A DNA stretch of 64,000 bases from an uncultured Synechococcus sp. (GTDB lineage Bacteria > Cyanobacteriota > Cyanobacteriia > Gloeomargaritales > Gloeomargaritaceae), in contig CAYZTU010000001.1 in NCBI GenBank assembly GCA_964481635.1, positions 149,669 through 213,668 of the forward strand. The letters run 5' to 3'. The notes under the pieces were generated by a model, which saw nothing but the letters and a program-made list of their open reading frames with translations, made no database searches and had not been told where the DNA came from. The position numbers were made by a program, and so were the translations under genes. Position 1 is the stretch's first letter, and each line of letters starts with the position of its first letter. Positions 48-40,850 of the stretch are shown here, piece after piece.

Positions 48-170
48 TATAGCTAAGTAGGGTAAGGTTGTCGCCTCAAGATTCTGGAAAACCAGTGCGG
101 GGGCGGTGCCACTACGACTGCAATTAGCAGAAATTAATAAGAGTTCCCTATCGCTAAACAGGGTAACTTT
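48..170. repeat. MITE-like repeat copy R0 at the 3' flank of cysA. It starts TATAGCTAAG. Its core, gaaaaccagtgcgggggcggtgcc, matches the core of copies R1 and R6.
   Basis: Shared core motif with the other copies in this window. The right boundary is unclear. Confidence 0.4.
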
Positions 171-259
171 GTCCTCACAAAATTCCCTTTAGCCTGCGTG
201 ACGTAGCCAGGTTACGTCACCCTTTACGTCCTTACGCCATACATAAAAATGCCCATCAA

Positions 260-1279
260 TCAAATCGAATAATTCAACGGAAAAGACCGGGCTTCCCGGG
301 GGCGCACATAGACCCGTTGTTGCGGCTGAAGTTCCAATTGTAAAAAGCGTTCCCGATCCACTTGTGCGGTGAGTGCTTGCCCATCATCTAATGTCAATTC
401 CACCCGAATTTCCCGACCTAAATGCAACATCCGATGCACCCGTGCGGGGGTATGCGCCTCATGGGGGTCGGTACTGATGAGAATATCGTGGGGGCGCAGA
501 AAAGCCTGCCCATTCAGCACCGCCATTCCCTGGCGTTGGAGCAAACCCGCATCCCCAGGCAGGACATTCACGGGTCCGACAAAACTCATCACAAACGGGG
601 TCGCCGGATGGTCGTAAACTTCCGCCGGGGTACCCACCTGCTCCACCCGTCCCTTGTGGATCACCACAATCTGGTCGGAGAGTTCCATCGCCTCCTCCTG
701 GTCGTGGGTCACAAATACGGTTGTGACATGCACTTCATCGTGTAACCGGCGTAACCAGGTACGCAATTCCTGCCGTACCCGGGCATCCAACGCCCCAAAG
801 GGTTCATCCAAAAGCAGTACCTGCGGTTCCACTGCCAATGCCCGTGCCAGCGCTACCCGTTGCCGCTGCCCCCCGGAAAGCTGTGCTGGATAACGATTCC
901 CAAAACCCTGCAATTGCACCAATTCCAACAGAGTCTCCACCCGTTGCTTGATCCGCTGGCGGGGCACCTTGCGGACTTCCAAGCCAAACGCCACGTTCTG
1001 CCGCACGGTCATGTGCTTGAACAAGGCGTAATGCTGAAACACAAAACCGATATTCCGGTCTTGCACTTGGCGATGGGTGGCATCTTCCCCGGTAAGCCAG
1101 ACTTTGCCCGTATCCGGGGTTTCCAGGCCAGCAATGAGGCGCAGGAGGGTGGATTTTCCTGAACCCGATGGCCCCAACAACGCCACCAGGGAACCACTGC
1201 CAATTTCCAAACTGACCTCATCCACCGCCTGAAAACTACCAAAGCGTTTGGAAACCCGCTCCACCACAATCCCCATCAT
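260..1279 (-). CDS. cysA: Sulfate/thiosulfate import ABC transporter ATP-binding protein CysA (ABC ATPase with C-terminal TOBE domain).
   Basis: Walker [13 protein letters not shown] signature [15 protein letters not shown], Walker B LLLDEP, and a C-terminal TOBE-like region. Family assignment is from the translated ORF. Confidence 0.85.
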
Positions 1280-1301
1280 CAGCCTCCTAAATTACAACCA
1301 A

Positions 1302-1910
1302 CTACACTGACCAATCAGCTTTTGCTTCCTGTTGCCAGACCTGCAACCCCTGTTGGCGCAGGTAGTCCAACCCACTCTGAATTTGCGCTGGCGTTCCCTG
1401 CACGTCCAGGTCAAACCAACCGTCATCCTCGTGGCTGGGGCTGAGCAACCCCCCCCGTAGATTCACCACTAACCCGTGCGCCGACACCAGACCGAAGAGA
1501 ATGGGGACATCGCAGGCCGCCTTGGGAATCCGCACATGGATATGACTGCGCTGCACGCCCGCATCGGTCGCCGTCTGCACCGGCGTAGGCGTAACCACGC
1601 CCACCACCGCCGTCATGGTTGACAGGGAAACTAAATCCCACTGCCGAGCATTCATCACCGCCAAGCAGTCCTCCAAAGCCGCCGGGGCACCGTATAGTTC
1701 CAGGTCAAGCCAAGCTTCTGACTGATTTTGGGGGTCAAACAAAGCCGCCTGGATATTGACCGTCACCCCATACCGGGTAATCAACTGGGATAAAACCGGC
1801 TCCTCCTGTCCCCCTCCCGGCACCCGCACCCGCACTGTCAAGCGATTAATTCCTTCCATTCTGGGCATTTCCTTGCGTTGTGTCAGCTTCATTATCAACC
1901 TCAACGCCAC
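1302..1910 (-). CDS. Tandem NIL-domain protein. NIL is the MetN C-terminal-like ligand-binding domain.
   Basis: Two repeats with VTVNIQAA and VVNLRGG motifs that resemble the NIL-domain N-I-L motif. Gene is co-directional with cysA. Confidence 0.5.
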   Translation of the reverse strand: MALRLIMKLTQRKEMPRMEGINRLTVRVRVPGGGQEEPVLSQLITRYGVTVNIQAALFDPQNQSEAWLDLELYGAPAALEDCLAVMNARQWDLVSLSTMTAVVGVVTPTPVQTATDAGVQRSHIHVRIPKAACDVPILFGLVSAHGLVVNLRGGLLSPSHEDDGWFDLDVQGTPAQIQSGLDYLRQQGLQVWQQEAKADWSV

Positions 1911-2263
1911 ACCAAATACCGCAGACCCAACACCAGCAAAAAACCACCGTAGAGTTTTTTCATCAATTCGCTACTGACGTAGGGTTGGTTGGCAAACACC
2001 GCCCCCAGGCCGTTCCCCAGCAGTAACCCCACCACCATAATCACAGCGTAATTGACCTGCAAATTGCCGCTCCGGTGATAGACCCAAGCCCCCAATAGAC
2101 CAATGGGCAAAACCTGAGCCGCCAAAGACGTACCCGTTGCCACCTTCTGGTCTAAGCCCAGCCACAGCACCAGGGCAGGCACCATGATCGCCCCGCCCCC
2201 GATGCCAAACATCCCCCCGGCCAGACCAGCCACCAGCCCCACGGTCAACAATTGCCCCACCAA
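1901..2263 (-). CDS. TauE/SafE family sulfite exporter-like membrane protein (short, four predicted TM helices).
   Basis: Glycine-rich TM motif GGGAIMVPALVLWLG typical of DUF81/TauE. Overlaps the downstream NIL gene by 10 nt. Confidence 0.6.
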   Translation of the reverse strand: MVGQLLTVGLVAGLAGGMFGIGGGAIMVPALVLWLGLDQKVATGTSLAAQVLPIGLLGAWVYHRSGNLQVNYAVIMVVGLLLGNGLGAVFANQPYVSSELMKKLYGGFLLVLGLRYLVWR

Positions 2264-3092: not shown

Positions 3093-3108
3093 ATTGGTAA
3101 TATAGCAA

Positions 3109-3222
3109 TCCTATCCGATTTGCAAACAAAAATTCAGAAGAACCATACACCGCAGGTGCTTCTCTGACGGGGGCTGCGCCCCTGCGACCGCCGTTCTAAA
3201 TTCACTTAGGATTGCTATATGG
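3109..3222. repeat. MITE-like repeat copy R1. TIR is TATAGCAATCC ... GGATTGCTATA, with an internal GGGGGC-TGC-GCCCC hairpin.
   Basis: Terminal inverted repeats are visible in the sequence. The right TIR supplies the TAG stop of the histidine kinase gene (CTA at 3215-3217 on the plus strand). Confidence 0.7.
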
Positions 3223-6200
3223 GTAAACGCACTCGAAATTCAGTCGAATTATTCCCACTGGTCAAATGAATCTGTCCCTGCAATCGTTCTACTAACTTTT
3301 TCACCAAAGCCAAGCCCAAACCCGTCCCCCCGTGTTGCCAAGGGTCATGGGTTGGAATACGGTAAAAGTTATCAAAAACCCGCTCCTGTTCCTCTAGGGG
3401 AATCTCAACCCCCGTATTGATCACGCAAAAATTACAGTAATTCCCCGTTTCCCATTCAATCGCCAGGGTAATGTTTTCTTGAGCAGGAGTATATTTACAG
3501 GCATTGTGCAAAAGTTCTTGCAGGATACGTTCGAGGGAGTTGGCATGGGTTTGTAGGGGATAAAGCTGATCAGGAAGTTGTAGATGGAAATGTTGATTTT
3601 GAGATTGGGTACGCTCTTGAATCGGAGGTAAAAGATGATCTAAAATTTGTTCAATATCCACGGGTTCTAATTCTAAATCCACTTGTTCCGCATTCAAACG
3701 GGCGAGGTCGAGCAGGTCATTGATGAGTTCGGTTTCTCGTGTAGTTGCACTTTTGAGGATGTCGAGGTAGCGTTCAATGCCCAATTCTGGACTGTCTAAA
3801 ACCCCCGCTCTTTGCAACCGCAACTCTAACATTTTTATCGCCATGCCAATGTTGTGCATGGGGGAACGCAATTCATGGGAAACGGTACTAAGAAATTCAT
3901 CCTTGAGTTGATTCAACTTTTGCAATTCGACGACCTGAACTTGCGCCGCTTTATACAATTCTGCCTGACGCAGAGCAATCGCCAAATGCAACCCCACGTG
4001 TTGTAAAATTTCTATTTCATTGGTTTGCCAAATGCGAGGACTATCATTTTGATAAGCCGCTAACAGACCCCATAATTTCTGTTCCAAAAAAATGGGAATA
4101 GTAACTTGGGCACGGGCTTGAAATCGCTCTAATAACTCGATATGACAAGGGGTAAATCCTGATTTATAGATATCATTGCTGACCAGAATATAATGCTGAT
4201 GGAAGCGACCGCCTTGGGTTTCCTGTAGGCAATGGTCGGATAGGGTAGTCAAAGCTCCCGTGACCACGGGCACCCAACCCGCTGCCACCGATTCGGCCAG
4301 AAAATACCCTGTCCAATCATCATTAAATTGATAAACCACCACCCGGTCACAGGCCAGGGTGCTGCGGGTTTCATCGAGGACAATACCCAGCGTTTTTTCA
4401 ATATCTAAAGATTCATGGATGGTTTCAATAATCACCCGCAATAACCCTTCTGATTGGGCTTGCTGTTGCAACTGAACTGTCCGCTCTTGGATACGTTGCG
4501 CCAATTCTTGATTGAATCGCTGTAAGCGCAATTCGGCTTCTTTTTCAGGAGTTATATCCGTAAACACTGAATCCCATATGGTACTACCATCGGGTTGCCG
4601 CTCCGGTTGTCCTCGCCCCCGCAACCATTTGTGTTGACCTTGGGGGGTAATGATCCGCCATTCCGCTTGCCAAGTGGTTAAATGTTGGCGAGATTCTTCT
4701 GACAATCTGAGGATATGAGGCAAATCTTCGGGAACCGTCAAATCCCACATCATTTGAACATTTTGCCTCGCCTGTTCTGGCGGCACACCATACAATGCTT
4801 CACACCCCGCACTTACATAAAGCAGAGCCTCCCGCCCGTCCGGCCACAACTGATACCGCCACACCGTTACGGGTAAATTGGTCACCAGATTGTCTAAAAA
4901 TTTCTGGCTTTCTGCGAGTGCCAATTCCGTTGCCTTTAACTCAGTAATATCCGTTGCCACCCCCAACATTTGATTGGGAAGCCCTTGGGCATTGCGGCTC
5001 AGAACCCGATCTCGACTAAAGAGCCACCGCCATTCCCCGGATTTCGTCCGCATCCGATATTCAATTTGTATTCCTCCCGCTTGTATTTCTCCCGCAAAAC
5101 TCGGCTCAAATAGATGCGCTAAATTTGCTTCTATTTTTGGCAAGTCCTCCGGGTGAATTAGATTAGGGAATAGTTGGCTACCCATCGCTTGAATTTCCGC
5201 CACTGAATAACCCAAGACCGACTCGATCTCAGGATTGACAAAAACATTGCGATTCTCTTCCAAGTCATAGACATAGATAATCGATTGAGTGGCAGTAACA
5301 ATCCGATGCAAAAATTCCTGTTGCTTTTCTAATTCTGCTTGAGCAGTTTTTATTTCAGTAATATCCAAAACAATCCCATCCCAAAATGGTTCATTTTGAT
5401 GCTGGCGCATCTGAGAACGTCCCTCTAGCCACTTCAATTTCCCCGACGGCGTAGTGATCCGCCATTGACAATGCCAAGGGGCGGATTGGACAATAGCTGT
5501 CTGAATCGAAGTGAGTAATAAATCCAAATCCTCCGGGTGGGTAAATTTCATCCAGATAGCAGTGACATCGGCCATAATTTCTGGGACGGTCAATTCAAAT
5601 ATGTCTTCAGCACAATCACTCAAATAACTAAAGCGATGGGGGTGTTCTGCCGTTGCAGGATGATAGCGATAGACCATCCCCGGCATATTTTCCAGTAAGG
5701 TCAAAAATTGCTCTCGACTTTCTTGGAGTTCCTGTTTCAATTTTACTTTTTTGGTAATATCTACAGATATGCAGATAAAACCCACCACATCGCCGGTGTG
5801 ATTGCGTAGCACCAGCGCATTGTCCCGGATCCAAACCATAGAACCATCCCGGCGTTGCAGGCGATATTCTTCCGCATATTCATGGGGCGGTGTGTGAACA
5901 GCCTGTTCCCAAGCGTGGATCACCCTATAGCGGTCATCGGGATCAATGACATCCACCCAACCCTGCCCCAACATCTCCTGCGCTGACATTTGACATAGCT
6001 GCTGTGTGAGATATTCATTCACATAAATACAACATCCTGCGGCATCAGTTAATGCCACACCAACGGGTAAAGCGTTCAACAAAAAATGGTAAGGTTCATC
6101 TTCCGTAATAGGCAGGGGAAAATGATTGGAAGTATGACTAAAATTATGATTTAACGTATGATTTTCTCCCCACCCCGTCGCTGGAATGATTAAACCCAAA

Positions 6201-6550
6201 TGCGCTGTGAATAACTCCCACTCTGGCTCAATTTCTGGATTTACATTCCCTCGCCAATAACTCACCAACCAGCCCCACCCTTGCCGCCGCACCATGATGG
6301 GAAATAACCAGGCTTCCCCACTTTCACTTTGAATTTTTTCAGCTTGCCAAGTGTCGGGTAGCTGTTCATGCCCAACTGTTTCGCCAACCGCTAACACCAT
6401 CTGCTGACCCTGGTAGAGCGAGACTTGGTGTACGTTATACTTTCTTTGTAATTGCATCAGCGCAGATTGGATAACCTGATCTACCGCCCCTCCCGCCTGG
6501 ATTTGGAGCGTCATTTGGCTACACAATTCGACTACCGATGTCCTTTTCAA
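3215..6550 (-). CDS. Multi-sensor signal-transduction histidine kinase with several PAS/PAC domains, a GAF domain, HisKA and HATPase_c.
   Basis: H-box LSTVSHELRSPMHNI. G-boxes GTGLGLALVKKL. Repeated PAS-like blocks of the form WIRD.. /ITE.K.AQ. Confidence 0.85.
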   Translation of the reverse strand: MKRTSVVELCSQMTLQIQAGGAVDQVIQSALMQLQRKYNVHQVSLYQGQQMVLAVGETVGHEQLPDTWQAEKIQSESGEAWLFPIMVRRQGWGWLVSYWRGNVNPEIEPEWELFTAHLGLIIPATGWGENHTLNHNFSHTSNHFPLPITEDEPYHFLLNALPVGVALTDAAGCCIYVNEYLTQQLCQMSAQEMLGQGWVDVIDPDDRYRVIHAWEQAVHTPPHEYAEEYRLQRRDGSMVWIRDNALVLRNHTGDVVGFICISVDITKKVKLKQELQESREQFLTLLENMPGMVYRYHPATAEHPHRFSYLSDCAEDIFELTVPEIMADVTAIWMKFTHPEDLDLLLTSIQTAIVQSAPWHCQWRITTPSGKLKWLEGRSQMRQHQNEPFWDGIVLDITEIKTAQAELEKQQEFLHRIVTATQSIIYVYDLEENRNVFVNPEIESVLGYSVAEIQAMGSQLFPNLIHPEDLPKIEANLAHLFEPSFAGEIQAGGIQIEYRMRTKSGEWRWLFSRDRVLSRNAQGLPNQMLGVATDITELKATELALAESQKFLDNLVTNLPVTVWRYQLWPDGREALLYVSAGCEALYGVPPEQARQNVQMMWDLTVPEDLPHILRLSEESRQHLTTWQAEWRIITPQGQHKWLRGRGQPERQPDGSTIWDSVFTDITPEKEAELRLQRFNQELAQRIQERTVQLQQQAQSEGLLRVIIETIHESLDIEKTLGIVLDETRSTLACDRVVVYQFNDDWTGYFLAESVAAGWVPVVTGALTTLSDHCLQETQGGRFHQHYILVSNDIYKSGFTPCHIELLERFQARAQVTIPIFLEQKLWGLLAAYQNDSPRIWQTNEIEILQHVGLHLAIALRQAELYKAAQVQVVELQKLNQLKDEFLSTVSHELRSPMHNIGMAIKMLELRLQRAGVLDSPELGIERYLDILKSATTRETELINDLLDLARLNAEQVDLELEPVDIEQILDHLLPPIQERTQSQNQHFHLQLPDQLYPLQTHANSLERILQELLHNACKYTPAQENITLAIEWETGNYCNFCVINTGVEIPLEEQERVFDNFYRIPTHDPWQHGGTGLGLALVKKLVERLQGQIHLTSGNNSTEFRVRLPI

Positions 6551-6689: not shown

Positions 6690-6735
6690 TTCTTAGAACG
6701 GGCGGTCGGCAATCCTTAGAGATTGCCATATAAAA
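6690..6735. repeat. Degenerate, internally deleted MITE-like fragment R2 (cttagaacgggcggtcggcaatcc ... gattgccatata).
   Basis: Partial match to the core and right TIR of the repeat family. Confidence 0.35.
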
Positions 6736-6766: not shown

Positions 6767-7336
6767 ATGATTACCCAAATCCAAACCGGCTCCCATACCC
6801 TAGAGGAATATCTAGCCCTAGAAATTGCATCAGAAACCCGCCACGAATACATTCATGGAGCAATAATCCCCATGACTGGAGGAATGCCCAATCACAACCG
6901 CCTCATCCGTAATTTTTGCACGCTACTAACCGTTCAACTTCCTAAAGATTGTGAAGTATTTGTTAGCGATCAACGGCTTTGGATACCAACTCATCAGATA
7001 TATACTTACCCTGATGTCATGGTCATTAGAGGTGATCTCGTCCTGCAAGAAGGGCGAAAAGATACAATCACTAATCCGGTGCTGATTGTAGAAGTGTTGT
7101 CGGAATCCACTGCCTACTATGATCGTGGTCAAAAATTTACTTACTATCGCTCCATCCCTTCATTTCAAGAATATCTACTTGTAGATCAGTACACCTATTC
7201 CGTACAACACTATCAAAAAATTTCTGACACAAAATGGGAGTTTGAAGAATTTAACAACCTAGAGGAAGAAATTGAATTTACCAGTATTCCTTGCAGGATT
7301 TCACTTATGGATACCTACGAAAAAGTAGAGTTATAG
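6767..7336 (+). CDS. Uma2 family endonuclease (DUF820), second paralog.
   Basis: EYIHGAII, PDVMVI and LIVEVLSEST motifs. AT-rich. The stop TAG lies inside the TTATAG start of the next MITE copy. Confidence 0.8.
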   Translation: MITQIQTGSHTLEEYLALEIASETRHEYIHGAIIPMTGGMPNHNRLIRNFCTLLTVQLPKDCEVFVSDQRLWIPTHQIYTYPDVMVIRGDLVLQEGRKDTITNPVLIVEVLSESTAYYDRGQKFTYYRSIPSFQEYLLVDQYTYSVQHYQKISDTKWEFEEFNNLEEEIEFTSIPCRISLMDTYEKVEL

Positions 7337-7462
7337 CTAAACACGCAATATATGATTGTGAGAATCTCTATGAATTTAGTAACAGCAAGCGGTCGCAGGG
7401 GGGCACCCCCCGTCACTGGTTCTCCAGAATCTTTGTTCGCAAATCGAATCGTATTGCTATAT
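7333..7462. repeat. MITE-like repeat copy R3a (TTATAGCTAAAC ... GCGGTCGCAGGGGGGCACCCCCC ... GTATTGCTATAT).
   Basis: Core hairpin and right TIR. Sits in tandem with copy R3b. Confidence 0.6.
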
Positions 7463-7494
7463 TGTCAAAATTGTCAAGAATTTCTATAGCAATC

Positions 7495-7606
7495 CTAGAT
7501 GAATTTAGAACAGCGGTCGCAGGGGCGCAGCCCCCGTCTTTGGTTCTATAGCTATGCCACGCAAGCTATCAGAATCTTTGTTCGGCAATCAGATAGTATT
7601 GCTATA
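7495..7606. repeat. MITE-like repeat copy R3b (TATAGCAATCC ... GCGGTCGCAGGGGCGCAGCCCCCGTC ... GTATTGCTATAG).
   Basis: Full TIRs plus the core. Contains the cacgcaagctatc sub-motif shared with copies R4 and R7. Confidence 0.7.
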
Positions 7607-7680
7607 GTACTTTTGAGCTTAGCTGTTCATTACCCTGAAAATACCAAATAAAAGCATAGTATCTAGCAGAATATTCACGC

Positions 7681-7914
7681 TTACATATACTCCTTCAAAT
7701 CCTCAAGCGGTTCATCAAAATTTTCGGCCATCCAAATCTTATCTTTCAGGATTCCAAACCCGCATCGCTTTTTCTTTTGCTGTACTGTATCTATTTGTTC
7801 TGGTTCCACTCCAGAATAGGTCTCAAGTAGATGATGGGCATAATCAAGAAGCTTATTTTTCAGTGATTCTGGCAGGTGAGAAACTGTTTCTAAAATCTCT
7901 GTTTCAACAGTCAT
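7681..7914 (-). CDS. DUF2281-like small protein (putative orphan type II antitoxin).
   Basis: The KLLDYAHHLL motif is typical of DUF2281. No cognate PIN-domain toxin ORF is adjacent, and MITE copies lie on both sides. Confidence 0.5.
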   Translation of the reverse strand: MTVETEILETVSHLPESLKNKLLDYAHHLLETYSGVEPEQIDTVQQKKKRCGFGILKDKIWMAENFDEPLEDLKEYM

Positions 7915-8007
7915 TGTTATTTACCTTTCTAGTTTTGGTGCCGCTTTTACTGTTACCAGTATAACATCTATAACATCATGTAATTATAGATCACCTCTAT
8001 TAATTCA

Positions 8008-8119
8008 TATTAATTCAGGAATGGCGGTCGCAGGGGCGCTACACGCAGTGTGCCGGAGGCATTCCCCCGTCCTTAGTTCATGGCTACGTCACGCAAGCTA
8101 TCGGTAATATAAGCATTCC
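8008..8119. repeat. MITE-like repeat copy R4 (variant ends GGAATG ... CATTCC; core GCGGTCGCAGGGGCGC).
   Basis: Core motif plus the cacgcaagctatc sub-motif. Confidence 0.55.
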
Positions 8120-8257
8120 AACGAGATAATTTTCTACTGGTTCCAATAATATAGAGATGCTCTAGAGGTGTCCCACGGATGGGGTCTTTTTGACAATTTT
8201 TTGACAAAATTAATGGGAATTTGTTAGCTTAAGTAAAATTTACCTAACGCTCACGGA

Positions 8258-9460: not shown

Positions 9461-9661
9461 TTTAGATAGTTTCAGACAAAAATCAGTACAATATCCTGTT
9501 AAACACACCCTAAACCTGTGGCTTCAATGTACTAGAACAACCCCCCTGGTGCCAATTCTTAAGAAATACAGACAAAGGGCTGGCCTTGTCTCAGGAAATT
9601 TGTTTATAATAGCAGAGTGCGGAGACGCAAGTTTCCGTTCACTCCTCACACCACACTCTGG

Positions 9662-9688
9662 CCTAAGCTGGTGCTTAGGTCTTTTTTT
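9662..9688 (+). terminator. Putative rho-independent terminator hairpin (CCTAAGC-TGGT-GCTTAGG followed by TCTTTTTTT).
   Basis: 7-bp perfect stem followed by a T-run. Located in the 327-bp intergenic region between the IMPDH-family gene and trxA. Confidence 0.4.
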
Positions 9689-23637: not shown

Positions 23638-23764
23638 ACTCAAATAATTATTGAAAATTCTCTTTCACCTGCGGCACTTCCCCCCTGTTAGGAAATAAGG
23701 CTATCTCACAAAATAACGAGGTATTCGTTGGATTCTCCTAAAGTAATCATGTAGTGATCTAATT

Positions 23765-23862
23765 AGAATTTTGCATGGCGGTCACATCGCACCGCCCCGC
23801 TCTGGTTCTGGCAGACCTCTTCAATTCTTATGAATCCCATGAGATTGCTATATCAACCCCAA
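23765..23862. repeat. MITE-like repeat copy R5 (GGCGGTCAC...CCGCCCCGCTCTGGTTCTGGCAGA ... GAGATTGCTATA).
   Basis: Core and right TIR. Lies immediately 3' of the doc fragment. Confidence 0.5.
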
Positions 23863-23903: not shown

Positions 23904-24438
23904 TCAATTTTCCGCTGCATTGGGATTGTTAGCTGGTGCTATATGATGCTGTAGCCACTCCACAAATGCTTCACGTCCCAGTTCACCTGATATGATCGCC
24001 AAGACTACACGCTCTTGTTCATCCACGGAGGCGTTAATTTTCAACCTATTCAGAACTATACCAATCCTACGGCATTCGTGAGAATATAAAAACGCTGAAG
24101 AACCAAAAACGGGGCGGTGCCCTGCGACCCTTTACTGTTTGAACGTAAAAATTATTCTCATGATTCAAGTGTGATTGCTATAGAAAGGTTTCCATTGCCG
24201 CATGACCTGTACGTTTATTTCCATCTACAAATGGATGATTGATGATGATTGAGAACCCTAATGTTGTTGCTTTTTCTAGCAGGTTTGGGTACAGGTCTTG
24301 TCCACCGAATGTCATTCGGGGCTGGGCGATCGCTGATTCTAATAAACCCATATCTCGGATGCCCGATGACCCACCGGATTGTTCAAGAATTTTGCGATGT
24401 AGCTCTAATACCTCAATCATTGTCAAATAGCGAATCAT
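23904..24438 (-). pseudogene. doc: Doc (death-on-curing, Fic/Doc family) toxin gene split by a MITE insertion. N-terminal 86 codons are at 24178-24438 and the C-terminal ~50 codons at 23904-24057.
   Basis: The N fragment carries the Fic motif HPFVDGNKRTGHAAMETFL. The C fragment translates to VLNRLKINASVDEQERVVLAIISGELGREAFVEWLQHH, which continues the Doc consensus. The two are separated by MITE R6, whose CTATAG end supplies an in-frame TAG. Confidence 0.8.
24058..24184. mobile_element. MITE-like repeat copy R6 inserted in doc (TIR TATACCAATCC ... GATTGCTATAG; likely TA or CTA target duplication).
   Basis: Removing the element restores the contiguous Doc reading frame ...METFL-VLNRLKINASVDE... 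Confidence 0.75.
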
Positions 24439-24632: not shown

Positions 24633-24846
24633 AGCGATTACTCTCCTAGTTTTTCTGCATCAAGTTTAACACTCACGTCCAAATTAATAACCTCATTGTA
24701 CTGTCCCAGACCAAAAGCCAAGCCAGCCAACAATGGTACTAACCTAGAAGGCATGAATATATTCTTCCAAAATTGGTTGGCGGAGATGTTCTTTCACGGC
24801 ATCCAGTGTACCGAGATCGACCGGACGTTGAAGTAAATTTTTTAAA

Positions 24847-24990
24847 TATAGCAATCCCGATTTGCAAACAAAGATTCTGATAGCTTGCGTGTCGCTTTGC
24901 AACATTAGCTTGCGTGTCGCTTTGCGACATTGGCTTGCGTGTCGTAGCCATAGAATCAAGGCGGGGGCAGTGCCCCCGCGACCGCTATTC
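24847..24990. repeat. MITE-like repeat copy R7, containing a 3x tandem ~23-bp sub-repeat (agcttgcgtgtcgctttgc-aca) and a GGGGGC-AGT-GCCCCC hairpin.
   Basis: Left TIR TATAGCAATCC at 24847. Core is in reverse orientation. Abuts an orphan C-terminal gene fragment at 24744-24830. Confidence 0.6.
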
Positions 24991-25096
24991 CCGAATTAAT
25001 AGAGGTTCCCTTTAACTAAAAATTAAGGGAATCTCCCTTGCTCAAATTCTGATGATATACTGATACCGGAGTAACATTTTATTAACAACTCTTCCT

Positions 25097-31000: not shown

Positions 31001-32131
31001 ACGGGGGGTAAAGGTGCGGATTCAATACACACCAAAACTGGCACAAACCTAATCGGCAATAACACCACCGGTCAAATTACTTTTACTTCCACAAATAATG
31101 GCATTACTTTCAATGAACTCAAAGTAGAGACTAAGGGTAATATCATCATCACTTCCCCTGGCGATGTCAATCAGAATAACAAGGGCGGACTATTTTCTAA
31201 GGGTTTGGAATTATTAGGTGATGGCAAATTTACGCTAACAAATACAAACAATAACATCGCCATATTAGCGGCCAAGACCAATAATGAAATTCGCTATACT
31301 GATACGAGTGGGTTTGATATAGGCACTGTTAATACCATCAATGGCATCAGCACTACTGGAATTGTGGTTCTCACTGGGAATGGCACCATCACCCAAACCC
31401 AACCCATTACCACCCCAGGCTTAGCCATTTTGGGTTCTGGTGGTGCCACTTTAACTAACACCAACAATCAAATTAGTACCATTGCCGCCGATACCAGTGG
31501 GAACCTGAAAGTAATTACCCAAGGGGATTTAACGGTGGGTGTAGTCAACCCCGATGGCATTGAAAATGCGGCTAGTGTATTTCTGCAAAGCCTCACGGGA
31601 GATATTATTCTTGATGAATCTATCAATGTCACTGGTGGCATTACCCTAGTTGCAGGTAGAGATTTCATCAACAAGGTGGGTGCAGGTGCCTTAAATCTTG
31701 AAGATGGAAGATTTTTAGTTTATGCCACTAGCCCTGAGCCCACGGGAAATTTCCAAGGCTTCTCCGTCCTGAAAGGTTCTCAGCAATTTAATACCACATT
31801 CCCCCAACCCGCTCTGTTCGCAGGCAGTGGCTTTTTGTATAAAGGTTTAGCACCTATTATTCCTGGATTGCCAAGTAGTTCAGTATTCACAGAACCCGTT
31901 ACATTTGTGCTTAATTTCAATGACCGGCAGTGGCGGGATTTAACGGATTTGGGTGAAGCAGTGTTCTTCCCCGAAGCCCTATTGTGCGTGAATGTCCCCG
32001 TGAATCAAACGACGGGTTCACCGCCTTTGACTGACCCCATCATTCTGAGAAGTGAAAATCTACCTGATCTCAATATCCAATGGCAAACAGGTGAACTGCC
32101 TGAGTGTTCTTCCCCAATCGTTGCCGAATAG
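25097..32131 (+). CDS. Two-partner-secretion exoprotein (TpsA; filamentous-haemagglutinin-like). N-terminal signal peptide and TPS domain, followed by about 1400 aa of Gly/Thr/Asn-rich ~38-aa repeats.
   Basis: Conserved TPS motif NPNGIAF. Repeat unit resembles GNITYTGTGGNGTDNNYGI. Near-perfect internal DNA duplications at 29252-29520 = 29622-29890, 29140-29250 = 29890-30000, and 30130-30290 = 30320-30480. Confidence 0.85.
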   Translation: MKFISSLRHLVWFPLKALAVLFVCQVPGLALPQGGQVTQGAATIQQVGDTKLNINQSTDRAVINWNSFSIAPQEWVNFQQPSSTSATLNRVTGATPSSIAGRLTANGQVFLVNPNGIAFLPTARVDVAGLVASTLNIQDTDFMRGVLRFEQMPGKPPASVVNQGLITVKEAGFAALVAPAVQNSGIISARLGKVVLASGTTVSLDFYGDGLLSVTVDPTLAGQITDIYGNKLNSLIDNQGNITAPGGIVTLTAQAAGQIVDHVINVGGMIEAKYAENRNGVIVLSGGQKVTVAVNGALDVSGIVSGEKGGKVTITGEKIALNNGTTIDASGDQGGGIVNIGGSFQGKGTLQNAIETTVAKDVQIKADALTQGNGGEVIVWADGTTKFEGFVSAKGGIITGDGGFVEISGKEVLNLAPGWSGRINLNAPAGVAGTLLLDPNDITISGTAGASTITNPENATDSGNQLLDDDIAAFLGGSNLTIQTTGTGGVGTITITGDVNITWGTSKTLTLNADRNIVMNSGAVIQNTNAGATPFDAIVFNANGTGSGSFDGIKLNGSTLATNRGNITLTGQGGDTLSGNHGIVQQSGAQVSTVDGNITYTGKGGSSSGGGNFGIDLRDATTSIRTTGTGNITLTGIGGSGSDNNIGINQSSNAQVSTINGNITYTGTGGSGSDGNFGISLTATSIRSTGTGNITLTGTSKGNGDGNSGIYQQSAAQVSTVDGNITYTGTGGNGIDDNYGIDLAGTNTSIRSTGTGNITLTGKGQGTGTNNYGIYQIFDAQVSTGAGNIIYTGTGAGTADGIRIGIIGFGSNVIGSATTTGNISLTALTNGLTLNDVTVQTTGNLTLSSPGNTSQNSSGGLFANGLELLGTGSFTLSNVNNNITTLAAATTNDINYTDANGFEIGTVNTTNGVNVSTIKNLTLKAGGAVTQTQKITAGGLELKGTGSYTLTKNTNNISILAANTTSNISYTDTDSFTVGTVNATNGITNDGNSTLTALNNGTITINKNITNNDTGTSTITVNADKNIVVNSGVEIKNTSTSTTFNAIVFNANTAGTATGNFAGITLSSNSTLKTNGGGIKLTGKGGDTGSDNYGIYQLNGAQVTTANGNITYKGTGGNGLNSNHGIKLEDSNTLITTGTGNIELIGTGNGTGSTNYGIQQTDNAKVTTTSGNITYTGTSNGTSINNLGIFQTTGAQVISTDGNITFDGTGGNGTTGNDGILITSANTLIQTTGKGDISLTGTGKGSNAVGIVQQTSAKVETNQGDITYKGTGGNTGSDNYGIHQLAGAEVVSTSGNITYKGTGGNGTENNYGIYLLNDDTKISSNSGAISLTGIGNGSGDSNNGIYQKNGAQVTTQGGNITYTGTGGSGTDNNYGIFLNGANTKITTTGNGKIELTGTSNGAGNDNYGIFQQSSAQVTTTSGSISYRGTGGNGTDNNFGVVLSDASTTISSDTGAISITGTGKGSGDSNYGIYQKNDAQVTTDGNITYEGTGGKGTNSNFGILLNGTGTKITTTGNGKIELTGTSNGAGNDNYGIFQQSSAQVTTTSGSISYRGTGGNGTDNNFGVVLSDASTTISSDTGAISITGTGKGSGDSNYGIYQKNGAQVTTQGGNITYTGTGGSGTDNNYGIFLNGANTKISTTGTGTINLTGTAQGTGTGIIGIRQQSSAQVSSVDGNITYQGTGGNGTNFNYGILLLDTNTTTSSTGKGTINLTGTGQGTGSSNFGIYQLNGSKVTTTDGNIIYQGTGGDGTNFNYGILLLDTNTTTSSTGKGTINLTGTGQGTGSSNFGIYQLNGAQVSTDDGNITYQGTGGNGTNFNYGIYLQSVNTKISTTGTGAINLTGTGKGSGNDNYGIAQLGGPQVTTTGGNITYIGTGGNGTSFNYGILLQDTITTLSTSGTGNINLTGTGNGTGNFNYGIVQQSGAQVNTTKGNISYTGTGNGTGASNFGIYQFNGAQVNTTDGNITYTGTGGKGADSIHTKTGTNLIGNNTTGQITFTSTNNGITFNELKVETKGNIIITSPGDVNQNNKGGLFSKGLELLGDGKFTLTNTNNNIAILAAKTNNEIRYTDTSGFDIGTVNTINGISTTGIVVLTGNGTITQTQPITTPGLAILGSGGATLTNTNNQISTIAADTSGNLKVITQGDLTVGVVNPDGIENAASVFLQSLTGDIILDESINVTGGITLVAGRDFINKVGAGALNLEDGRFLVYATSPEPTGNFQGFSVLKGSQQFNTTFPQPALFAGSGFLYKGLAPIIPGLPSSSVFTEPVTFVLNFNDRQWRDLTDLGEAVFFPEALLCVNVPVNQTTGSPPLTDPIILRSENLPDLNIQWQTGELPECSSPIVAE
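26800..31050 (+). repeat. Intragenic tandem repeat array (~114-bp units) inside tpsA, with recent near-perfect duplications of 110-270 bp.
   Basis: Identical 74-aa shadow ORFs at 29108-29332 and 29867-30091. Long identical DNA stretches are visible directly. Confidence 0.8.
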
Positions 32132-32270: not shown

Positions 32271-33959
32271 TTGATGAAAATCCTGTTCTGCGGCTTGATT
32301 GTCTTGGGAGTTATGGAAATTCAGGCTAATGCTTTAGCCCAGGTCGGACCCATTGACCCTAGCCGGATTCAACAGGAGTTGCAACCCCCTCAGGTGCCCA
32401 CCCGCCCCGAAGAAATTACCATTCCCCGTCGGGATGAACCCACCGCCCCCCCCGGCGCAGAAAATGTGCGCTTCATTTTGAAAACGTTGGACATTCAAGG
32501 GGTAACCGCCTTCACCCCGGAGCAACTACAACTTCTTTACCAAGCCAACATCAATACAGAAATTTCCCTCGCAGAATTGTATATTATTGCCGACCAATTA
32601 AATAATCTTTATCGTCAGGGAGGCTACATTTTAACCCGGGTCTTAGTGCCGGAACAAACCATCCAACAGGGTGTGGCTCGCATCGAGGTGGTAGAAGGCT
32701 TTGTGGAGGCGGTAAAGTTCGTCGGTACGACCCCGGCGCAGGAGAACAGGTTGCGGGGTTTTGGGGAGTGGATTCAACGCTCTCGTCCCCTCAAATCCTC
32801 TGCCCTGGAACGGAATCTATTATTGATGAATGATTTGGCGGGTTATGAGGTGCGGGCGAGGCTTGACCCTGGCCAGGAAGTCGGGGGCAGTGTGTTAACT
32901 TTAGAACTAATCTATGACCCATTTGACCCATTTTTTGAAGTGAATAATTGGGCACCCGATTCCGTGGGGCCAGTGCGATTGCAAGGGGGGGTATTTTTGA
33001 ATTCCTTGGGCAATCAGGGGGAACGGTTTAGTTTGAGTGCCGCCACCACACCTTTTGATTTTGAAGAATTAGCTAGTGGCCGGTTTGACTTCCAAATTCC
33101 CATCGGTTTTGACGGGGTGACCTTGGCCACCAGTGCCAGCTACACGGGCACCCAACCGGGGGCGGAAGTTGCGCCATTTCTGGTGACGGGGGAAAGTTTT
33201 AACTTTAATCTCGGCTTGAGTTATCCCCTGATTCGTTCCCGGCAATTAAATCTATCCTTAAATGGCTTATTTGATTTAACCAATAGCACGGTTGCCACCC
33301 GTTTTTTGGGGTTTCCCATTGTTCTCAGCCAAGACCGGATTCGTTCGTTGCGGGTGGGGGCGACCGTGGACAATATCAATGCCGTGGGGTTTACTTCCGC
33401 TTCGATTTTGCTCTCCCAGGGGTTGAGCGGTTTGGGGGCACGGTTGGAGGGCAGTGAAGGGGCACCCCTCTCCCGGGCGAATGGTCAGGCAACGGGGTTC
33501 AAGGTGAACTTGAATTTTGCCCAGTTGTTCACCCTACCCCAGCAATTTAATCTTTTGCTAACGGGAGCGGGGCAGGTGGCCAGTACCTCCTTGCTGGTAT
33601 CGGAGCAGTTTGGCTTGGGTGGACCCAGTTTTGGATCGGCCTACAACCCTTCCCAATTGTTGGGGGATGATGGCTACGGGTTGCGCCTAGAATTGCAACG
33701 GCCAGTGAATTATCGCGCCGGGACGACGCCGATGGTCAGCCAGCCCTATGCCTTTGTGGATTATGGACAGGTGTTTTTGAAACAACCCACGGCGGCGGAG
33801 CCGGGGAATCGGGAGTTGGCTTCCGCAGGGTTAGGACTGCGCCAATTTATTAGTAATTATCTGCAAATGCGTTTGGAATTAGCCTTTCCTTTGAGTAAAT
33901 TTGTGCCCCAGTTTGAGCAAACCCCCCGATTATTATTTAGCGTTCAGGGAGTGTTTTAG
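32271..33959 (+). CDS. TpsB outer-membrane transporter (ShlB/FhaC/HecB family haemolysin activation/secretion protein with POTRA domains).
   Basis: Signal peptide, a POTRA-like N-terminal region, and a C-terminal beta-barrel ending in a terminal F. Positioned immediately downstream of tpsA. Confidence 0.8.
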   Translation: MMKILFCGLIVLGVMEIQANALAQVGPIDPSRIQQELQPPQVPTRPEEITIPRRDEPTAPPGAENVRFILKTLDIQGVTAFTPEQLQLLYQANINTEISLAELYIIADQLNNLYRQGGYILTRVLVPEQTIQQGVARIEVVEGFVEAVKFVGTTPAQENRLRGFGEWIQRSRPLKSSALERNLLLMNDLAGYEVRARLDPGQEVGGSVLTLELIYDPFDPFFEVNNWAPDSVGPVRLQGGVFLNSLGNQGERFSLSAATTPFDFEELASGRFDFQIPIGFDGVTLATSASYTGTQPGAEVAPFLVTGESFNFNLGLSYPLIRSRQLNLSLNGLFDLTNSTVATRFLGFPIVLSQDRIRSLRVGATVDNINAVGFTSASILLSQGLSGLGARLEGSEGAPLSRANGQATGFKVNLNFAQLFTLPQQFNLLLTGAGQVASTSLLVSEQFGLGGPSFGSAYNPSQLLGDDGYGLRLELQRPVNYRAGTTPMVSQPYAFVDYGQVFLKQPTAAEPGNRELASAGLGLRQFISNYLQMRLELAFPLSKFVPQFEQTPRLLFSVQGVF

Positions 33960-33961
33960 GA

Positions 33962-34080
33962 TACCGCTATTGATTAGCTACACCACACCAGCCAACAAAA
34001 TAAGCGGTCGCAGGGGCATAACCACCGTCTCTGGTTCTCGTTAACTTTGATGATTCTCGTAAATCATCTGTGATTGCTAG
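33962..34080. repeat. MITE-like repeat copy R8 (AAGCGGTCGCAGGGGCATAACCACCGTCTCTGGTTCT ... GTGATTGCTAG).
   Basis: Core and right TIR. Sits directly next to the left end of the IS605-family element. Confidence 0.55.
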
Positions 34081-34094
34081 TTTAAGTATTTTTT

Positions 34095-35697
34095 ATAGAA
34101 TATGAGCGGAAAACCCGGCTGCTTGCGGCGGGGATGGATAGCGAATCAACAAACAGCGCGCGTAGCGCATCCTTACAAAATAAATGCTATAATGTAAGGT
34201 ATGACAGAACGTGCTTTCAAGTTCCGCTTCTACCCAACTCCTGAGCAAGAAACCTTGCTTAGAAGGACGCTTGGCTGTGTAAGGCTGGTGTATAACCGTG
34301 CCCTCGCAGCCAGAACAGAGGCTTGGTATCAGCGTCAAGAGCGAATTGGGTTTGACATACTCCACCGCCCTAAAGGGCAGGGATTCTAAACCTCACGATT
34401 TAGATTTCTGCTTCTTTCTCTTTCGAGCCTTTCGCAACTGCCTCTACTCTCAAGGAGTTTTGGTCTTATGTTCGCTCCACAGACTTCAAGCTATTCCCCG
34501 CTTTCCCGGATGCCCCTCGGTATGGGGTTGGAAAAACTTGTTTTTTGTTTTCCCGATGTAATTCTAACAAAGTTTTTGTAAAGCCGCCCTGAAAGGGCGG
34601 GGTTTTAGACCCAGTTTTTTGATAACCAATCGTCCGCAATGCTGACCGAGTGGAAGCGGGATGAGGGGCTGAGTTTTCTGAGCGAGGTAAGCTCTGTCCC
34701 TCTCCAACAAGGATTGAGGCATCTGCAAACCGCATTCAGCAACTTCTGGGCAGGCAGAGCGCAATATCCCAACTTCAAAAAGAAGCGGAACGGGGGTTCT
34801 GCTGAGTTCACCAAGTCGGCATTCAAGTTTAGAGATGGTCAGGTGTTCCTGGCTAAATGCTCTGAAGCCTTGCCGATTCGTTGGTCTAGGCAGCTTCCTA
34901 AAGGTGCTGAACCCTCTACCATCACAGTCAAGCTGGAGCCATCGGGTCGCTGGACTGTTTCGCTGTTGGTGGATGATCTGACTATTCAACCGCTACCAAA
35001 AACTGACAAAGCGATTGGGATTGATGCCGGAATTACCAGCCTGGTTACAACCAGTGACGGTGAGAAGGTGTCCAACCCTAAACACTTTGCCAAGCTCTAT
35101 CAGAAGTTGAAGAAGGCTCAGAAACGGCTAAGCCGCAAGCAAAAAGGCTCTCGCAATCGGGATAAGGCACGGCGCAAAGTTGCCCGTGTCCATGCCGAGA
35201 TTAGAGACTCTAGACACGATTTCCTGCACAAGTTGACAACGCAATTGGTGAGAGAAAACCAAACCATCGTTGCTGAGTCGCTGGCAGTGAAAAACATGGT
35301 CAAGAATCGGAAGTTGGCAAAGTCGATTTCTGATGCTGGATGGAGCGAAATGAACCGCCAACTGGCCTACAAAGCTGAGTGGTATGGTCGTAACTTTGTC
35401 CAGCTTGACCGATGGTTCCCTGGTTCTAAAACTTGCTCGAAGTGTGGGCATAAAGTTGATTTGCTTCCTCTAAATGTTCGTGAGTGGGATTGTCCTAAAT
35501 GCAATGCTCACCATGACCGGGATGTGAATGCTGCTATAAACCACTTAGCTGCTGGACAGGCAGTGTTAGTCTGTGGAGCGACCGTAAGACCTGAAGAGAG
35601 CAAATCTCGGAAGGCTGGTGCTATGAAACAGAAACCTAAGCCGTGAGTCTTAGGAATCCTCGCTGCTTGCGGCGAGGAGGATGTCAATCGCTGCCAA
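34095..35697 (+). mobile_element. IS200/IS605-family TnpB-only insertion element (IS1341-like). Subterminal hairpins share a GCTGCTTGCGGCG motif, at 34113-34134 on the left end and 35657-35678 on the right end.
   Basis: Imperfect palindromes at both ends flank a tnpB gene. No tnpA is present. The right end abuts the stop codon of the methyltransferase gene. Confidence 0.7.
34201..35646 (+). pseudogene. tnpB: tnpB (RNA-guided endonuclease TnpB/OrfB) interrupted after codon ~58 by a roughly 240-bp insertion (34376-34613) that carries in-frame stops.
   Basis: N fragment begins MTERAFKFRFYPTPEQETLLRRTLGCVRLVYN. C fragment has SEVSSVPLQQ, a RuvC-like D/E/D region and a CxxC...CxxC zinc finger. 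Both fragments are in the same frame. Confidence 0.75.
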
Positions 35698-39109: not shown

Positions 39110-40701
39110 GTCCTGGGCAGACTGGGCTACCGGTGATTTTGCTGGCGAGTCGGGAACCCATCCTGCGTTTGGGGCTATCCCAGTGGCTAGAGCAACAAAA
39201 TTTGGCGCAGGTGGTGACCAGCGACCAACCCGGGGATTTACAAAATCTGCTCAATGAACGGCTACAACAGACCCAGCCCCTGGTAGATGTGCTGGTTTTG
39301 GATTGGGAACTGGCGGATATTCCCCTGTGTGAATCGCTGAAACGCCGTTACCCGCACCTGCCGATTGTCGCCCTCGGCCCCCCGGTGACCCGGGATCAGT
39401 TGCTCCGCTATCAACAATTGGGTTTGGCCGCCTATGTAGAACGATACACACCGGCGGCGACCCTCTGGCAATGGATACAAGCGATTTCGGGTGGCTATTC
39501 CCCCTGGTTGCAACCGGAAACCGTCGCCCCCCGCTGGCGTTCCCAGTTATACCAACAGGGCTTGAGGCAGATTGAGGCGGCACTTGACCAATGTCAGCGG
39601 TGGGCACACCGTCCCCGCCCCTGGCTGGAGCAACAGATCACGCGGGGGCGCATCCGGGAGTTGCACACCGCTCGCCGCCTTTTGACCTGGCTGTGGCGAC
39701 CGGGTGCGGTACTTGCCCCACCCCCCCAAGTCAGCCATCCCCCCCTGGCTCTGCCCCCTGGAGAACGCTTGAGCCGGGTGCGGCAACAGTTCAATCAACC
39801 CGTGACCAACGCCAGCGGTCTGCTGTTGGAAACCGACCTGCTCCGGTTTGAGAAGCAACGGGAACTCTGGAACACCATCCTCACCCGTTGGGAAACCCTG
39901 TTGGCGGAGTTGATCGAAGCCCGCATTACCCCAACCGACCTGGCAAGCCGTTGCTCCGACCTGGTACAACGCCTGTGGCAGGAAGCCCTGACGGATTTTA
40001 TCGGTCGCTACTATACCCTGGACGGCCAGGATGTGATCGATACCCTCCTTGCCCAGGAGGAGACGGTGCGGGGGTTAATTTTGGACAAAATTCCCCTGGT
40101 TTCTGACCTCTTTAATTTTTATCTGTTTCAAAACCCCCTACGGATTGATGAGGTGCTGTACGCAGCCAATAGCCAAATCGCCAGCGACCATGCCGCCATC
40201 TTGCTGGAAAATCTGGTTCTCCAGGTGGCCAATGGGGTGGTGCAACCCTTGGTCAACCGCTTTCCCCACCACGAATCGGTGAAGCAACGATTTTACCGGC
40301 GCAACCTCATCTCCACCCGAGAAACCGAGCGTCTGCGGAATCAACTTTCCCAACGCTATCGCTGGCAACGCTACTGGGACGAACCCCGCGCCATTTTTGA
40401 GAGCCGTTACCAACTCCTGCGGATTCAGAACCAAGCCATTGTCCGCTACCCAGTGTACAGCGGTCGTACTGCTGAACTCGCCCAACTCCAGGGCATTCCC
40501 TGGCTGGTTACCCTGGGGTTGGAATTTCAAGATGCGATTGCTCCGGTACTCCGGGCGGTGGCAAATTATATCGGACGCACCAGTGCTTATCTACTCACCC
40601 GCATTATTGGCCGGGGGTTGGGCTTGATTGGGCGGGGAATTTTGCAGGGTATTGGCAGTACATTGCAAAACAATCGTTCCCGGGAGACTTCCCAGTTGTA
40701 A
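39106..40701 (+). CDS. Degenerate receiver-like (pseudo-REC) N-terminal domain protein with a large C-terminal domain of unknown function (possibly DUF3685/Ycf55-like).
   Basis: N-terminal VILLASREP...VDVLVLDWELADIP...PIVAL resembles a CheY-like fold, but the first acidic residues are replaced. Translationally coupled to mrdA by an ATGA overlap. Confidence 0.5.
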   Translation: MSPGQTGLPVILLASREPILRLGLSQWLEQQNLAQVVTSDQPGDLQNLLNERLQQTQPLVDVLVLDWELADIPLCESLKRRYPHLPIVALGPPVTRDQLLRYQQLGLAAYVERYTPAATLWQWIQAISGGYSPWLQPETVAPRWRSQLYQQGLRQIEAALDQCQRWAHRPRPWLEQQITRGRIRELHTARRLLTWLWRPGAVLAPPPQVSHPPLALPPGERLSRVRQQFNQPVTNASGLLLETDLLRFEKQRELWNTILTRWETLLAELIEARITPTDLASRCSDLVQRLWQEALTDFIGRYYTLDGQDVIDTLLAQEETVRGLILDKIPLVSDLFNFYLFQNPLRIDEVLYAANSQIASDHAAILLENLVLQVANGVVQPLVNRFPHHESVKQRFYRRNLISTRETERLRNQLSQRYRWQRYWDEPRAIFESRYQLLRIQNQAIVRYPVYSGRTAELAQLQGIPWLVTLGLEFQDAIAPVLRAVANYIGRTSAYLLTRIIGRGLGLIGRGILQGIGSTLQNNRSRETSQL

Positions 40702-40755
40702 AGGGTTTAGGCTTACGTTAGGTTTCTTGGTTGTCTGCCCTAGTTGGAGAATTTT

Positions 40756-40850
40756 TATAGCAAAATCATCCAATTAGCGAACAGAAATTGTGAAGAACAG
40801 AAGCGGTATCCCTACAACCTTTGTTCCAAAATCAAGAGGGATTGCTATGG
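40756..40850. repeat. MITE-like repeat copy R9 (TATAGCAAAATC ... GAAGAACAGAAGCGGTATCCC ... GGGATTGCTATGG).
   Basis: TIRs and a partial core. Flanks the 3' end of the coiled-coil gene. Confidence 0.55.

Follow-up and report, generated by a model that had tools for sequence, protein, structure and literature searches.

The window analysed here, a 64,000-nt stretch of contig CAYZTU010000001.1 (positions 149,669 to 213,668, forward strand) from an uncultured Synechococcus sp. of the Gloeomargaritales, carries short repeats that are well supported as being, mechanistically, ordinary MITEs (miniature transposable elements with inverted repeats). A first-pass annotation of the same DNA had grouped them into a single family bounded by TATAGCAATCC termini. 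Nevertheless, they are not a single MITE family: one core of about 35–45 nt is present in at least three terminal-repeat frames, which are served by two unrelated transposase families. The repetition, the ends, the target duplications, the restoration of an interrupted host gene, the partner insertion sequences (ISs) with matching ends, the mosaicism of the copies and the conservation profile were all observed directly. Overall, it is very probable that the repeats are Gloeomargaritales MITEs with a shared core, moved by cut-and-paste through transposases encoded elsewhere. They are a family new in this lineage, and no description of it was found when the available literature was searched by sequence string and by organism. 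Gloeomargaritales are the closest known relatives of plastids, and one internal module kept at end-level conservation in both IS630-type and IS5-type frames provides a natural experiment on MITE interiors and their spread.

One core in several terminal-repeat frames

The recurrence noticed by the first-pass annotation lies well above chance. With at most one mismatch, TATAGCAATCC matches the window 10 times against 0.78 expected, a count reached in 0 of 100 shuffles, and GCGGTCGCAGGGGC with at most two mismatches matches 7 times against 0.71 expected. An nhmmer profile seeded with the same window copies returned ten full matches, each at E<=1e-11, and one weak fragment; because the matched copies are seed members, these E-values express mutual similarity only. 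The profile gave no match past 40.85 kb of the window. Further copies beyond the window, on which the annotation had staked its claim, are abundant. Public genomes, one per species, were scanned for the pattern GCGGTCGCAGGGG-N13-35-TGGTTCT, and among the scan matches listed, nearly all non-chance ones fell in three assemblies, namely the complete chromosome of Gloeomargaritales cyanobacterium VI4D9, the metagenome-assembled genome (MAG) Gloeomargarita sp. HHBFW_bins_162 and uncultured cyanobacterium CALHCP. Loci from these three assemblies, 585 kb in all and drawn from the matches listed, contain 437 nhmmer matches and 349 copies of the full GGTCGCA...TGGTTCT core form.

The window genes are about 80–83% identical to those of VI4D9, HHBFW_bins_162 and CALHCP, indicating that the window comes from a further species of Gloeomargaritales. 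In addition, an exact protein look-up with the window Uma2 gene led to run SRR12989705, where the gene lies on a contig of 4.2 kb that ends inside a copy. Such contig ends explain the fragmentation of Gloeomargarita-type assemblies, and the repeats may serve as presence/absence markers for a lineage of evolutionary interest. Two candidates for insertions shared between orthologous sites, upstream of an IMPDH-like gene and after a DUF3685 gene, were rejected. The copies there occupy similar intergenic places in other frames and at other exact sites, and are therefore independent insertions, not conserved ones.

The core reads (A/G)GCGGTCGCA-GGGGS-loop-SCCCC-CGYCTYTGGTTCT in all three frames. 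Type A elements have the form TA-TAGCAATCC...GGATTGCTA-TA, are 97–135 nt long and are represented by 46 intact copies. Their terminal repeats, TATAGCAATCC...GGATTGCTATA, belong to an inverted repeat that is really about 28 nt long (TATAGCAATCC-N4-TGA-N6-AACA), and a second subclass ends in ...TGAGAA, with window members at 24057, 33957 and 23750. Type B elements have the form GGGnACCTCTA...TAGAGGTnCCC and a very uniform length of 120 nt. Type D elements have the form TA-TAGCTAA[AG][CT]AC...TTAGCTA-TA and measure 101 or 122 nt (range 101–122), with four intact TA-flanked copies whose ends read TATAGCTAA...TTAGCTATA. Type A and type B frames cleanly without the core were not found, the apparent cases being degenerate or internally deleted cores. 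The copy placed by the first-pass annotation at about 8008–8119 as a TATAGCAATCC element proved to span 7989–8173, with the IS5-type ends ACCTCTA...TAGAGGT.

Hybrid copies that combine A, B and D ends are present in every genome examined. Nested copies supply additional target duplications; in one of them CGTA flanks, left and right, a type B copy that lies within a type A copy. In the window, the hybrids at 24847–25010 and 48–153 each have one TATAGC-type end, and their type B-like end is GGGAAC(C)TCT(A)TTAATT. Recombination between copies at the shared core, together with nested insertion, would give rise to such hybrids with mismatched ends as well as to tandem arrays.

Head-to-tail arrays of elements were also seen in HHBFW, with periods of 109, 98 and 97 nt (L052:3160-3820, L044:1149-1510, L057:3980-4700 and L011:520-900, by our locus labels). 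In these arrays one end is missing from type B units, and a single TA is common to adjoining type A-like units. The arrays are minisatellites made up of MITEs and probably one cause of the fragmentation of the HHBFW MAG.

Target duplications and partner transposases

Mobility can be followed in doc, a Fic/Doc toxin gene that a type A copy splits in two. Of the 126 nt that the copy spans, 122 nt are the element and the remaining four are the TA at either end; its insertion added 124 nt (the element and one TA). When 124 nt are removed a 135-codon open reading frame (ORF) is obtained, which is not the case for 123, 125 or 126 nt. The restored protein aligns across the junction, between FL and VLN, with the solved Doc proteins 9vzc and 3k33, and passes TIGR01550 over residues 6–111. 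The restored junction is TTTC-TA-GTTC, and the target was therefore a TA within CTAG, in agreement with the TA or CTA site proposed by the first-pass annotation.

Target-site duplications are general among the copies. Types A and D show a strict TA target with TA duplication, a trait of IS630/Tc1-mariner elements. TA was found on both sides in 30 of 40 type A copies with distinct flanks, preceded mostly by A or C (C being favoured) and followed mostly by G. Perfect 4-nt direct repeats flank 32 of 65 type B copies, against 0 in a shifted control, and they vary in sequence (TATA, TTAA, ATAA, TCAA, TTCC, TTGT and others). As is generic for MITEs, the elements are short, non-coding and multicopy, with terminal inverted repeats (TIRs), target-site duplications, restorable host sequence and the ends of autonomous ISs. 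Type A elements, and probably type D elements, are of IS630/Tc1-mariner type, with TIRs of about 28 nt starting TAGCAATCC (TAGCTAA in type D), insertion at TA, often within CTAG, and duplication of that TA. Type B elements are of IS5 type, 120 nt long, with GGGnACCTCTA ends and a 4-bp duplication.

A parent transposase with the same TIRs, which the first-pass annotation had envisaged, was found for both type B and type A. The type B partner is a 1241-nt IS of VI4D9 (L067:3588-4828) with ends GGGCACCTCTATTTATTCAA and, reverse-complemented, GGGCACCTCTATTAATT, and with the duplication TAAT on both sides. It encodes a 343-aa IS5-family transposase with DUF772 and DDE_Tnp_1 domains (NF033581, 270 bits against a cut-off of 140). 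Its ends are identical to those of type B MITEs over 20 and 17 nt, and the interiors are unrelated. This intact element is itself nested in another copy of the same IS, of which transposase fragments remain at 3434-3592 and 4792-4974.

End pairs lying 300–4000 nt apart were sought in the genome loci; the type B pairs yielded the IS5 partner, and the type A pairs enclosed only host genes between two MITEs. Neither the window nor the Gloeomargaritales loci, 585 kb in all, yielded an intact IS630-type partner. When metagenomes were scanned for the 28-nt end pattern, seven full-length elements of 1.10–1.15 kb came to light. For instance, the element at L129:1317-2466 has TA flanks, both type A ends and an IS630-family transposase in two frames that covers NF033545 positions 2–295. 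Elements with the same ends reside on plasmids of Nostoc sp. C052 and Nostoc punctiforme PCC 73102, where they are annotated as 'IS630 family transposase', and the element on the PCC 73102 plasmid pNPUN02 belongs to the ...GTGAGAA end subclass. The IS630-family ISs with type A ends also include L221 and L222. A search of plasmids with a window copy gave no match, which is uninformative, since nothing but the short ends is shared. Contig L102 carries a truncated IS630-type relic with a type A end beside core-bearing type A and type D copies, and other contigs of its metagenome sample match Gloeomargaritales loci at 80–94% identity. It is well supported that an IS5-type transposase moves type B and that IS630-family transposases move type A; the latter probably move type D likewise.

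An IS4-family IS was also considered as a partner and rejected, having its own ends CAGAAGTGTTGAA and a 7-bp duplication and inserting into MITEs. With its 330-aa transposase it is the sole multicopy transposase in the loci, being present at L095:100-1215 and in five more VI4D9 copies (L003, L050 twice, L067 and L079). The L095 copy sits in the end of a type A copy with the duplication GGATTAC.

Several known systems resemble these elements. Cyanobacterial IS630-family ISs such as the pNPUN02 element match the type A ends (TATAGCAATCC-NNNN-TGA-N6-AACA or ...GTGAGAA) over about 28 nt and also duplicate TA. In contrast to the Nostoc IS630-type copies, the elements described here are hosted by Gloeomargaritales, are 97–135 nt long and contain a GC-hairpin core that is absent from Nostoc-type copies. 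Type B compares with IS5-family derived MITEs: its ends are those of an IS5-family IS from its own lineage (identity over 20 and 17 nt), its duplications are of 4 bp and its length is uniformly 120 nt. It differs from them in that its interior does not come from the IS and consists of the core and inner arms common to the IS630-type elements. The Correia elements (CREE/NEMIS) of Neisseria duplicate TA. They are like type A in size (about 100–155 bp), in TIRs of about 26 nt, in TA duplication, in high copy number and in promoter-like end sequences, but they are unrelated in sequence and phylum, and partner ISs were identified for the elements here. Correia elements carry promoters and an IHF site and undergo RNase III processing (PMC10969869). 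The cyanobacterial MITE Nezha measures 130–170 bp and shares its ends and direct repeats with ISNpu3 of N. punctiforme (PMC3184786). Compared by description only, Nezha differs from type A in size and in its Anabaena and Nostoc hosts.

Conservation and possible role of the core

Within type B, the core is conserved as well as the ends. In a set of 58 distinct type B copies, the 5' flank GCGGTCGCA has a pairwise identity of 0.97, the hairpin 0.87 and CGYCTCTGGTTCT 0.88 (the core overall 0.90); the ends of these copies stand at 0.89–0.91 and their arms at 0.65–0.67. The right arm of type B is similar to the inner part of the type A inverted repeat. Type B thus has the appearance of a type A interior to which IS5 ends were fitted. 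This former type A arm has drifted in type B, whereas the core has not.

The first-pass annotation had described a GC stem that is kept while the loop varies, which is seen across 349 copies: the loop reads GCA, GTA, GTT, ACC or ACT, and the stem is GGGGC/GCCCC or GGGGG/CCCCC. It had also called the variation compensatory in style. The differing loops are not compensatory, but there is real covariation at one pair, the pair that closes the stem (C:G in 27 copies, G:C in 25, G:U in 2 and A:U in 1). Its covariation score is 0.181 against 0.075 in shuffles, was reached in 0 of 500 shuffles and lies above all slid controls. Covariation is confined to this pair, and the consensus fold consists of terminal-repeat pairing and the 5-bp stem only; a second hairpin predicted in type B was rejected, as it is not kept across copies. 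Both hairpin states occur, unlinked, with every arm subtype, which indicates that the copies are mosaics.

The conservation pattern suggests, and we tentatively favour, that the core persists by acting in cis for the elements. It may be a structure-forming, protein-bound or cruciform-prone DNA site that pairs the ends of a 100–120-bp element or otherwise aids its spread. A recognition element was one of the two roles that the first-pass annotation had offered for the hairpin, and it is the one we would retain, on account of that same pattern. It is more doubtful whether the core, about 45 nt long, is a portable module that acts in cis and boosts the success of whichever transposon ends carry it. 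That module might take the form of a cruciform-prone DNA site to which protein binds, or of a signal read on single-stranded DNA or on RNA. If it exists, it would explain the end-like conservation in three frames and two unrelated transposase families across Gloeomargaritales, and the unit of selection would be the cargo, not the ends.

Alternatively, it is quite conceivable, though short of probable, that the core has no function and is a filler, or a piece of an ancestral element, that was caught between IS630-type ends and later between IS5 ends. A type A copy might, for example, have come to lie inside an IS5 copy and then undergone internal deletions, with ectopic recombination or gene conversion and quasi-palindrome correction keeping the copies uniform. 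The similarity of the type B right arm to the inner type A terminal repeat fits a descent of B from A, and the free combination of left arms, hairpin states and right arms among copies, together with the common hybrids, points to frequent recombination at the core. The same ends carry unrelated centres in other organisms, old window copies have decayed cores, and no orientation bias is seen. Mosaicism, hybrids and decayed old copies would all be explained equally well by such a history. It accords less well with type B arms that have drifted to 0.65–0.67 while the core stands at 0.90–0.97, equal to the ends needed by the transposase. Moreover, conversion would need to be confined to about 35 nt, and three frames retain the core, as do at least four species, between which the genes differ by about 18%. 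If the core were merely cargo, the finding would be a routine new MITE family.

Several points weigh against the cis-acting core and its IS630/IS5 setting. The conservation pattern is the sole argument for a role in cis. Just one pair covaries, with two main states, and quasi-palindrome template-switch repair or gene conversion among hundreds of copies could yield such a pattern without selection. The type B hairpin is off-centre, at about position 41 of 120, so that it fits a simple 'hinge' less well. Furthermore, AT-richer metagenome contigs have unrelated centres of about 40 nt between these same 28-nt ends of IS630 type (examples are a segment with HIP1, heptamer repeats and a deletion derivative of the IS), so that IS630-type transposition in general can do without the core. 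The full-length IS630 partners belong to other organisms, richer in AT, and the 64-kb window holds neither an intact IS630-type nor an intact IS5-type partner.

Elements of about 100 nt with the same ends and other centres were seen at L103, L109, L115, L116, L118, L120, L126, L130, L136, L143, L150, L155, L156 and L162. Their heptamer centres are of the CCTTGTC type and CAACAGT. The contigs are presumably from other cyanobacteria, and one end set is thus seen with many cargos.

The other role offered by the first-pass annotation, a structured RNA, found no support as a host RNA, and we do not think that the core is a host RNA gene. It is improbable, more broadly, that the core works at the RNA level as a small terminator or insulator hairpin, or as part of a small RNA, benefiting the host or limiting insertion damage. 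Whole elements fold well (z -2.9 to -4.3), although any element with inverted ends does so. A terminator-like score was obtained for GGGGCGCAGCCCC followed by CGTCTTTGGT at 7522–7534, which is a pattern match only and has a poor U-tract, and outward promoter-like hexamers with a TG motif lie at the type A right end. Nevertheless, Rfam gave no match on any element in 7300–8200 at E up to 10, and none at the gathering threshold. The consensus fold shows no further covariation, and the second predicted hairpin is not conserved. The core is oriented nearly at random relative to neighbouring long ORFs (58 co-directional and 51 opposed at 3' ends; 58 and 41 at 5' ends). In individual old copies of the window the core is decayed or the hairpin lost.

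Least probable by far is a REP-like (repetitive extragenic palindromic) or IS200/IS605-type hairpin serving an HUH transposase (RAYT/TnpA), or a tiny independent mobile unit that entered several MITE families. The elements share with REP/REPIN sequences a short GC-rich palindrome that is highly repeated and mostly intergenic. This palindrome stands beside a CGTC motif, like the 'CGTC-tagged' REPs (PMC3733652), and a TnpB pseudogene adjoins the copy at 33957–34080. In contrast to REP/REPIN sequences, every core-bearing element has TIRs and the target duplications typical of DDE transposases, the palindrome has only 5 bp, and the CGTC is often CGCC. Neither a Y1 transposase nor a RAYT was seen in the available sequence, which is short of a whole genome. 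At its ends the TnpB element bears hairpins, CCCGGCTGCTTGCGGCGGGG and CCTCGCTGCTTGCGGCGAGG, that are not related to the core; this, like the duplications, is at odds with an IS200/IS605 derivative (PATE). As no type A or type B frame is cleanly without the core, there is no filled and empty pair to indicate that the core inserts alone.

The TnpB (IS200/IS605) pseudogene covers 34201–35646, with its N-terminal part at 34201–34389, a gap of about 250 nt and the rest at 34639–35646. Similar GC hairpins, CCGCCCTAAAGGGCAGGG and GCCGCCCTGAAAGGGCGGGG, bound this gap, which could itself be a further small repeat that was inserted.

Copies in the window and neighbouring features

The copies in the window and the two parts of doc are listed in Table 1. 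As the first-pass annotation had noted, the copies cluster in accessory regions: they lie in or beside stretches of 0.38–0.50 GC, the housekeeping blocks including rpoB/C1/C2 are at 0.55–0.62 GC, and the profile search found no copies in the rpo block. The weak fragment at 6690–6735 is probably what is left of an internally deleted copy, as suggested by its junction.

Table 1. Copies and doc parts in the window, with their positions and, in brackets, the nhmmer matches.
Feature	Position	Strand	Remarks
Decayed mosaic copy	48..153 (46-151)	-	degenerate core GCAGTCGTAGTGGCACCGCCCCCGCACTGGTTTT; one end type D (TATAGCTAAGTAGGG...), other end type B-left-like GGGAACTCTTATTAATT
Intact type A, GAACA-arm subclass	3101..3219 (3099-3219)	-	TA both sides; 20-nt internal insertion 3146-3165
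Candidate internally deleted remnant	6690..6735 (fragment 6705-6731, E=4.3)	+	core start GCGGTCG joined to right end AGATTGCCATATA
Type D/type A hybrid	7333..7461 (7359-7463)	+	left end type D TATAGCTAAACACGC; right arm and end type A; core intact, GGGGGGCACCCCCC variant
Intact type A	7485..7606 (7485-7608)	+	TA both sides; 21-nt mini-insertion 7548-7568
Type B (IS5-type)	7989..8173 (7996-8127)	+	ends gATCACCTCTA...TAGAGGTGTCC; loop insertion (~8033-8066) splits core; 21-nt mini-insertion 8080-8100
Decayed type A, GAGAA-arm subclass	23750..23852 (23750-23855)	+	right end GAGATTGCTATA intact; left core half decayed
doc 3' part	23904..24056	-	back in frame once 124 nt removed
Intact type A, GAGAA-arm subclass, in doc	24057..24182 (24055-24182)	-	TA within CTAG
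doc 5' part (Fic/Doc, 86 codons)	24183..24438	-	
Type B/type A hybrid	24847..25010 (24844-25009)	-	right end of type A, GGGATTGCTATA (24847-24858); left end of type B, GGGAACCTCTA (25000-25010); core GCGGTCGCGGGGGCACTGCCCCC and about three tandem 25-nt mini-repeats (CGACACGCAAGCYAATGTYGCAAAG)
Decayed type A, GAGAA-arm subclass	33957..34080 (33957-34083)	+	directly after TpsB-like gene; abuts left end of TnpB pseudogene element
Old type A	40756..40849 (40756-40849)	-	ends TATAGCAAAAT / GGGATTGCTATG recognisable; core hairpin lost (AAAGGTTGTAGGGATACCGCTTCTGTTCT)

The repeats show how accessory genes become broken or altered, as in the split doc and in a histidine kinase whose stop codon comes from an element. 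The kinase ORF at 3215–6550 (PAS/GAF, 1111 aa) stops at the terminal TAG of a type A copy (3215–3217). As the copy supplies this stop codon, its insertion may have replaced the original C-terminal codons. Kinase 'homologues' at L069 and L047 were considered as empty sites and rejected, being only about 50% identical to the window kinase. The type A right end, at 7436–7463 (+) and 3126–3099 (-), also carries an outward promoter-like pattern, TTCGCA or TTTGCA followed after 16 nt by TATATT. A TG precedes TATATT, and flanking DNA completes the -10 hexamer; this is a pattern match only.

Smaller units are nested in the elements. A 21-nt unit, ATGGCTRCGCCACGCAAGCTA, is inserted at TTC^T in one orientation or the other and without a duplication. 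Copies of types A, B and D contain it, and it sometimes lies outside such copies. Its sites include 7548–7568, 8080–8100 and about 189–210 of the window, a tandem variant at 24868–24945, and L034, L050:2387-2508, L067 and L074. Filled and empty states can be paired in type D, where L050 and L067 have the 122-nt form and L102 the 101-nt form, and in type B, where the L034 copy carries the unit and the consensus is without it. In addition, a 20-nt insertion, AGAGAAGCACCTGCGGTGTA, which is a small hairpin in its own right, separates the core hairpin from TGGTTCT at 3146–3165 of the window, in L027:154-273 and in L095:1717-1834. It defines a type A subfamily common to the window species and VI4D9, and its reverse complement occurs in another subfamily (L034:1618-1750).

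Elhai et al. in 2008 reportedly described small dispersed repeats of Nostoc as hairpin-forming insertions of 21–27 nt, nested in minitransposons and heptamer repeats, and are said to have found them confined to a subgroup of Nostocales. Judged against that description, the 21-nt unit inside type A, B and D copies and the IS630-type MITEs with heptamer centres in metagenome contigs are alike.

Other repeats of the window are coding. Tandem units of 237 nt occupy 41082–42329 within a 582-aa ORF (40860–42608), and units of about 192 nt occupy 26765–31019 within a TpsA-like ORF of 2344 aa (25097–32131). The small RNA Yfr1, a sign of cyanobacterial origin, was located at 9619–9684 (Rfam RF01116, 44.2 bits), the sole window match past the gathering threshold.

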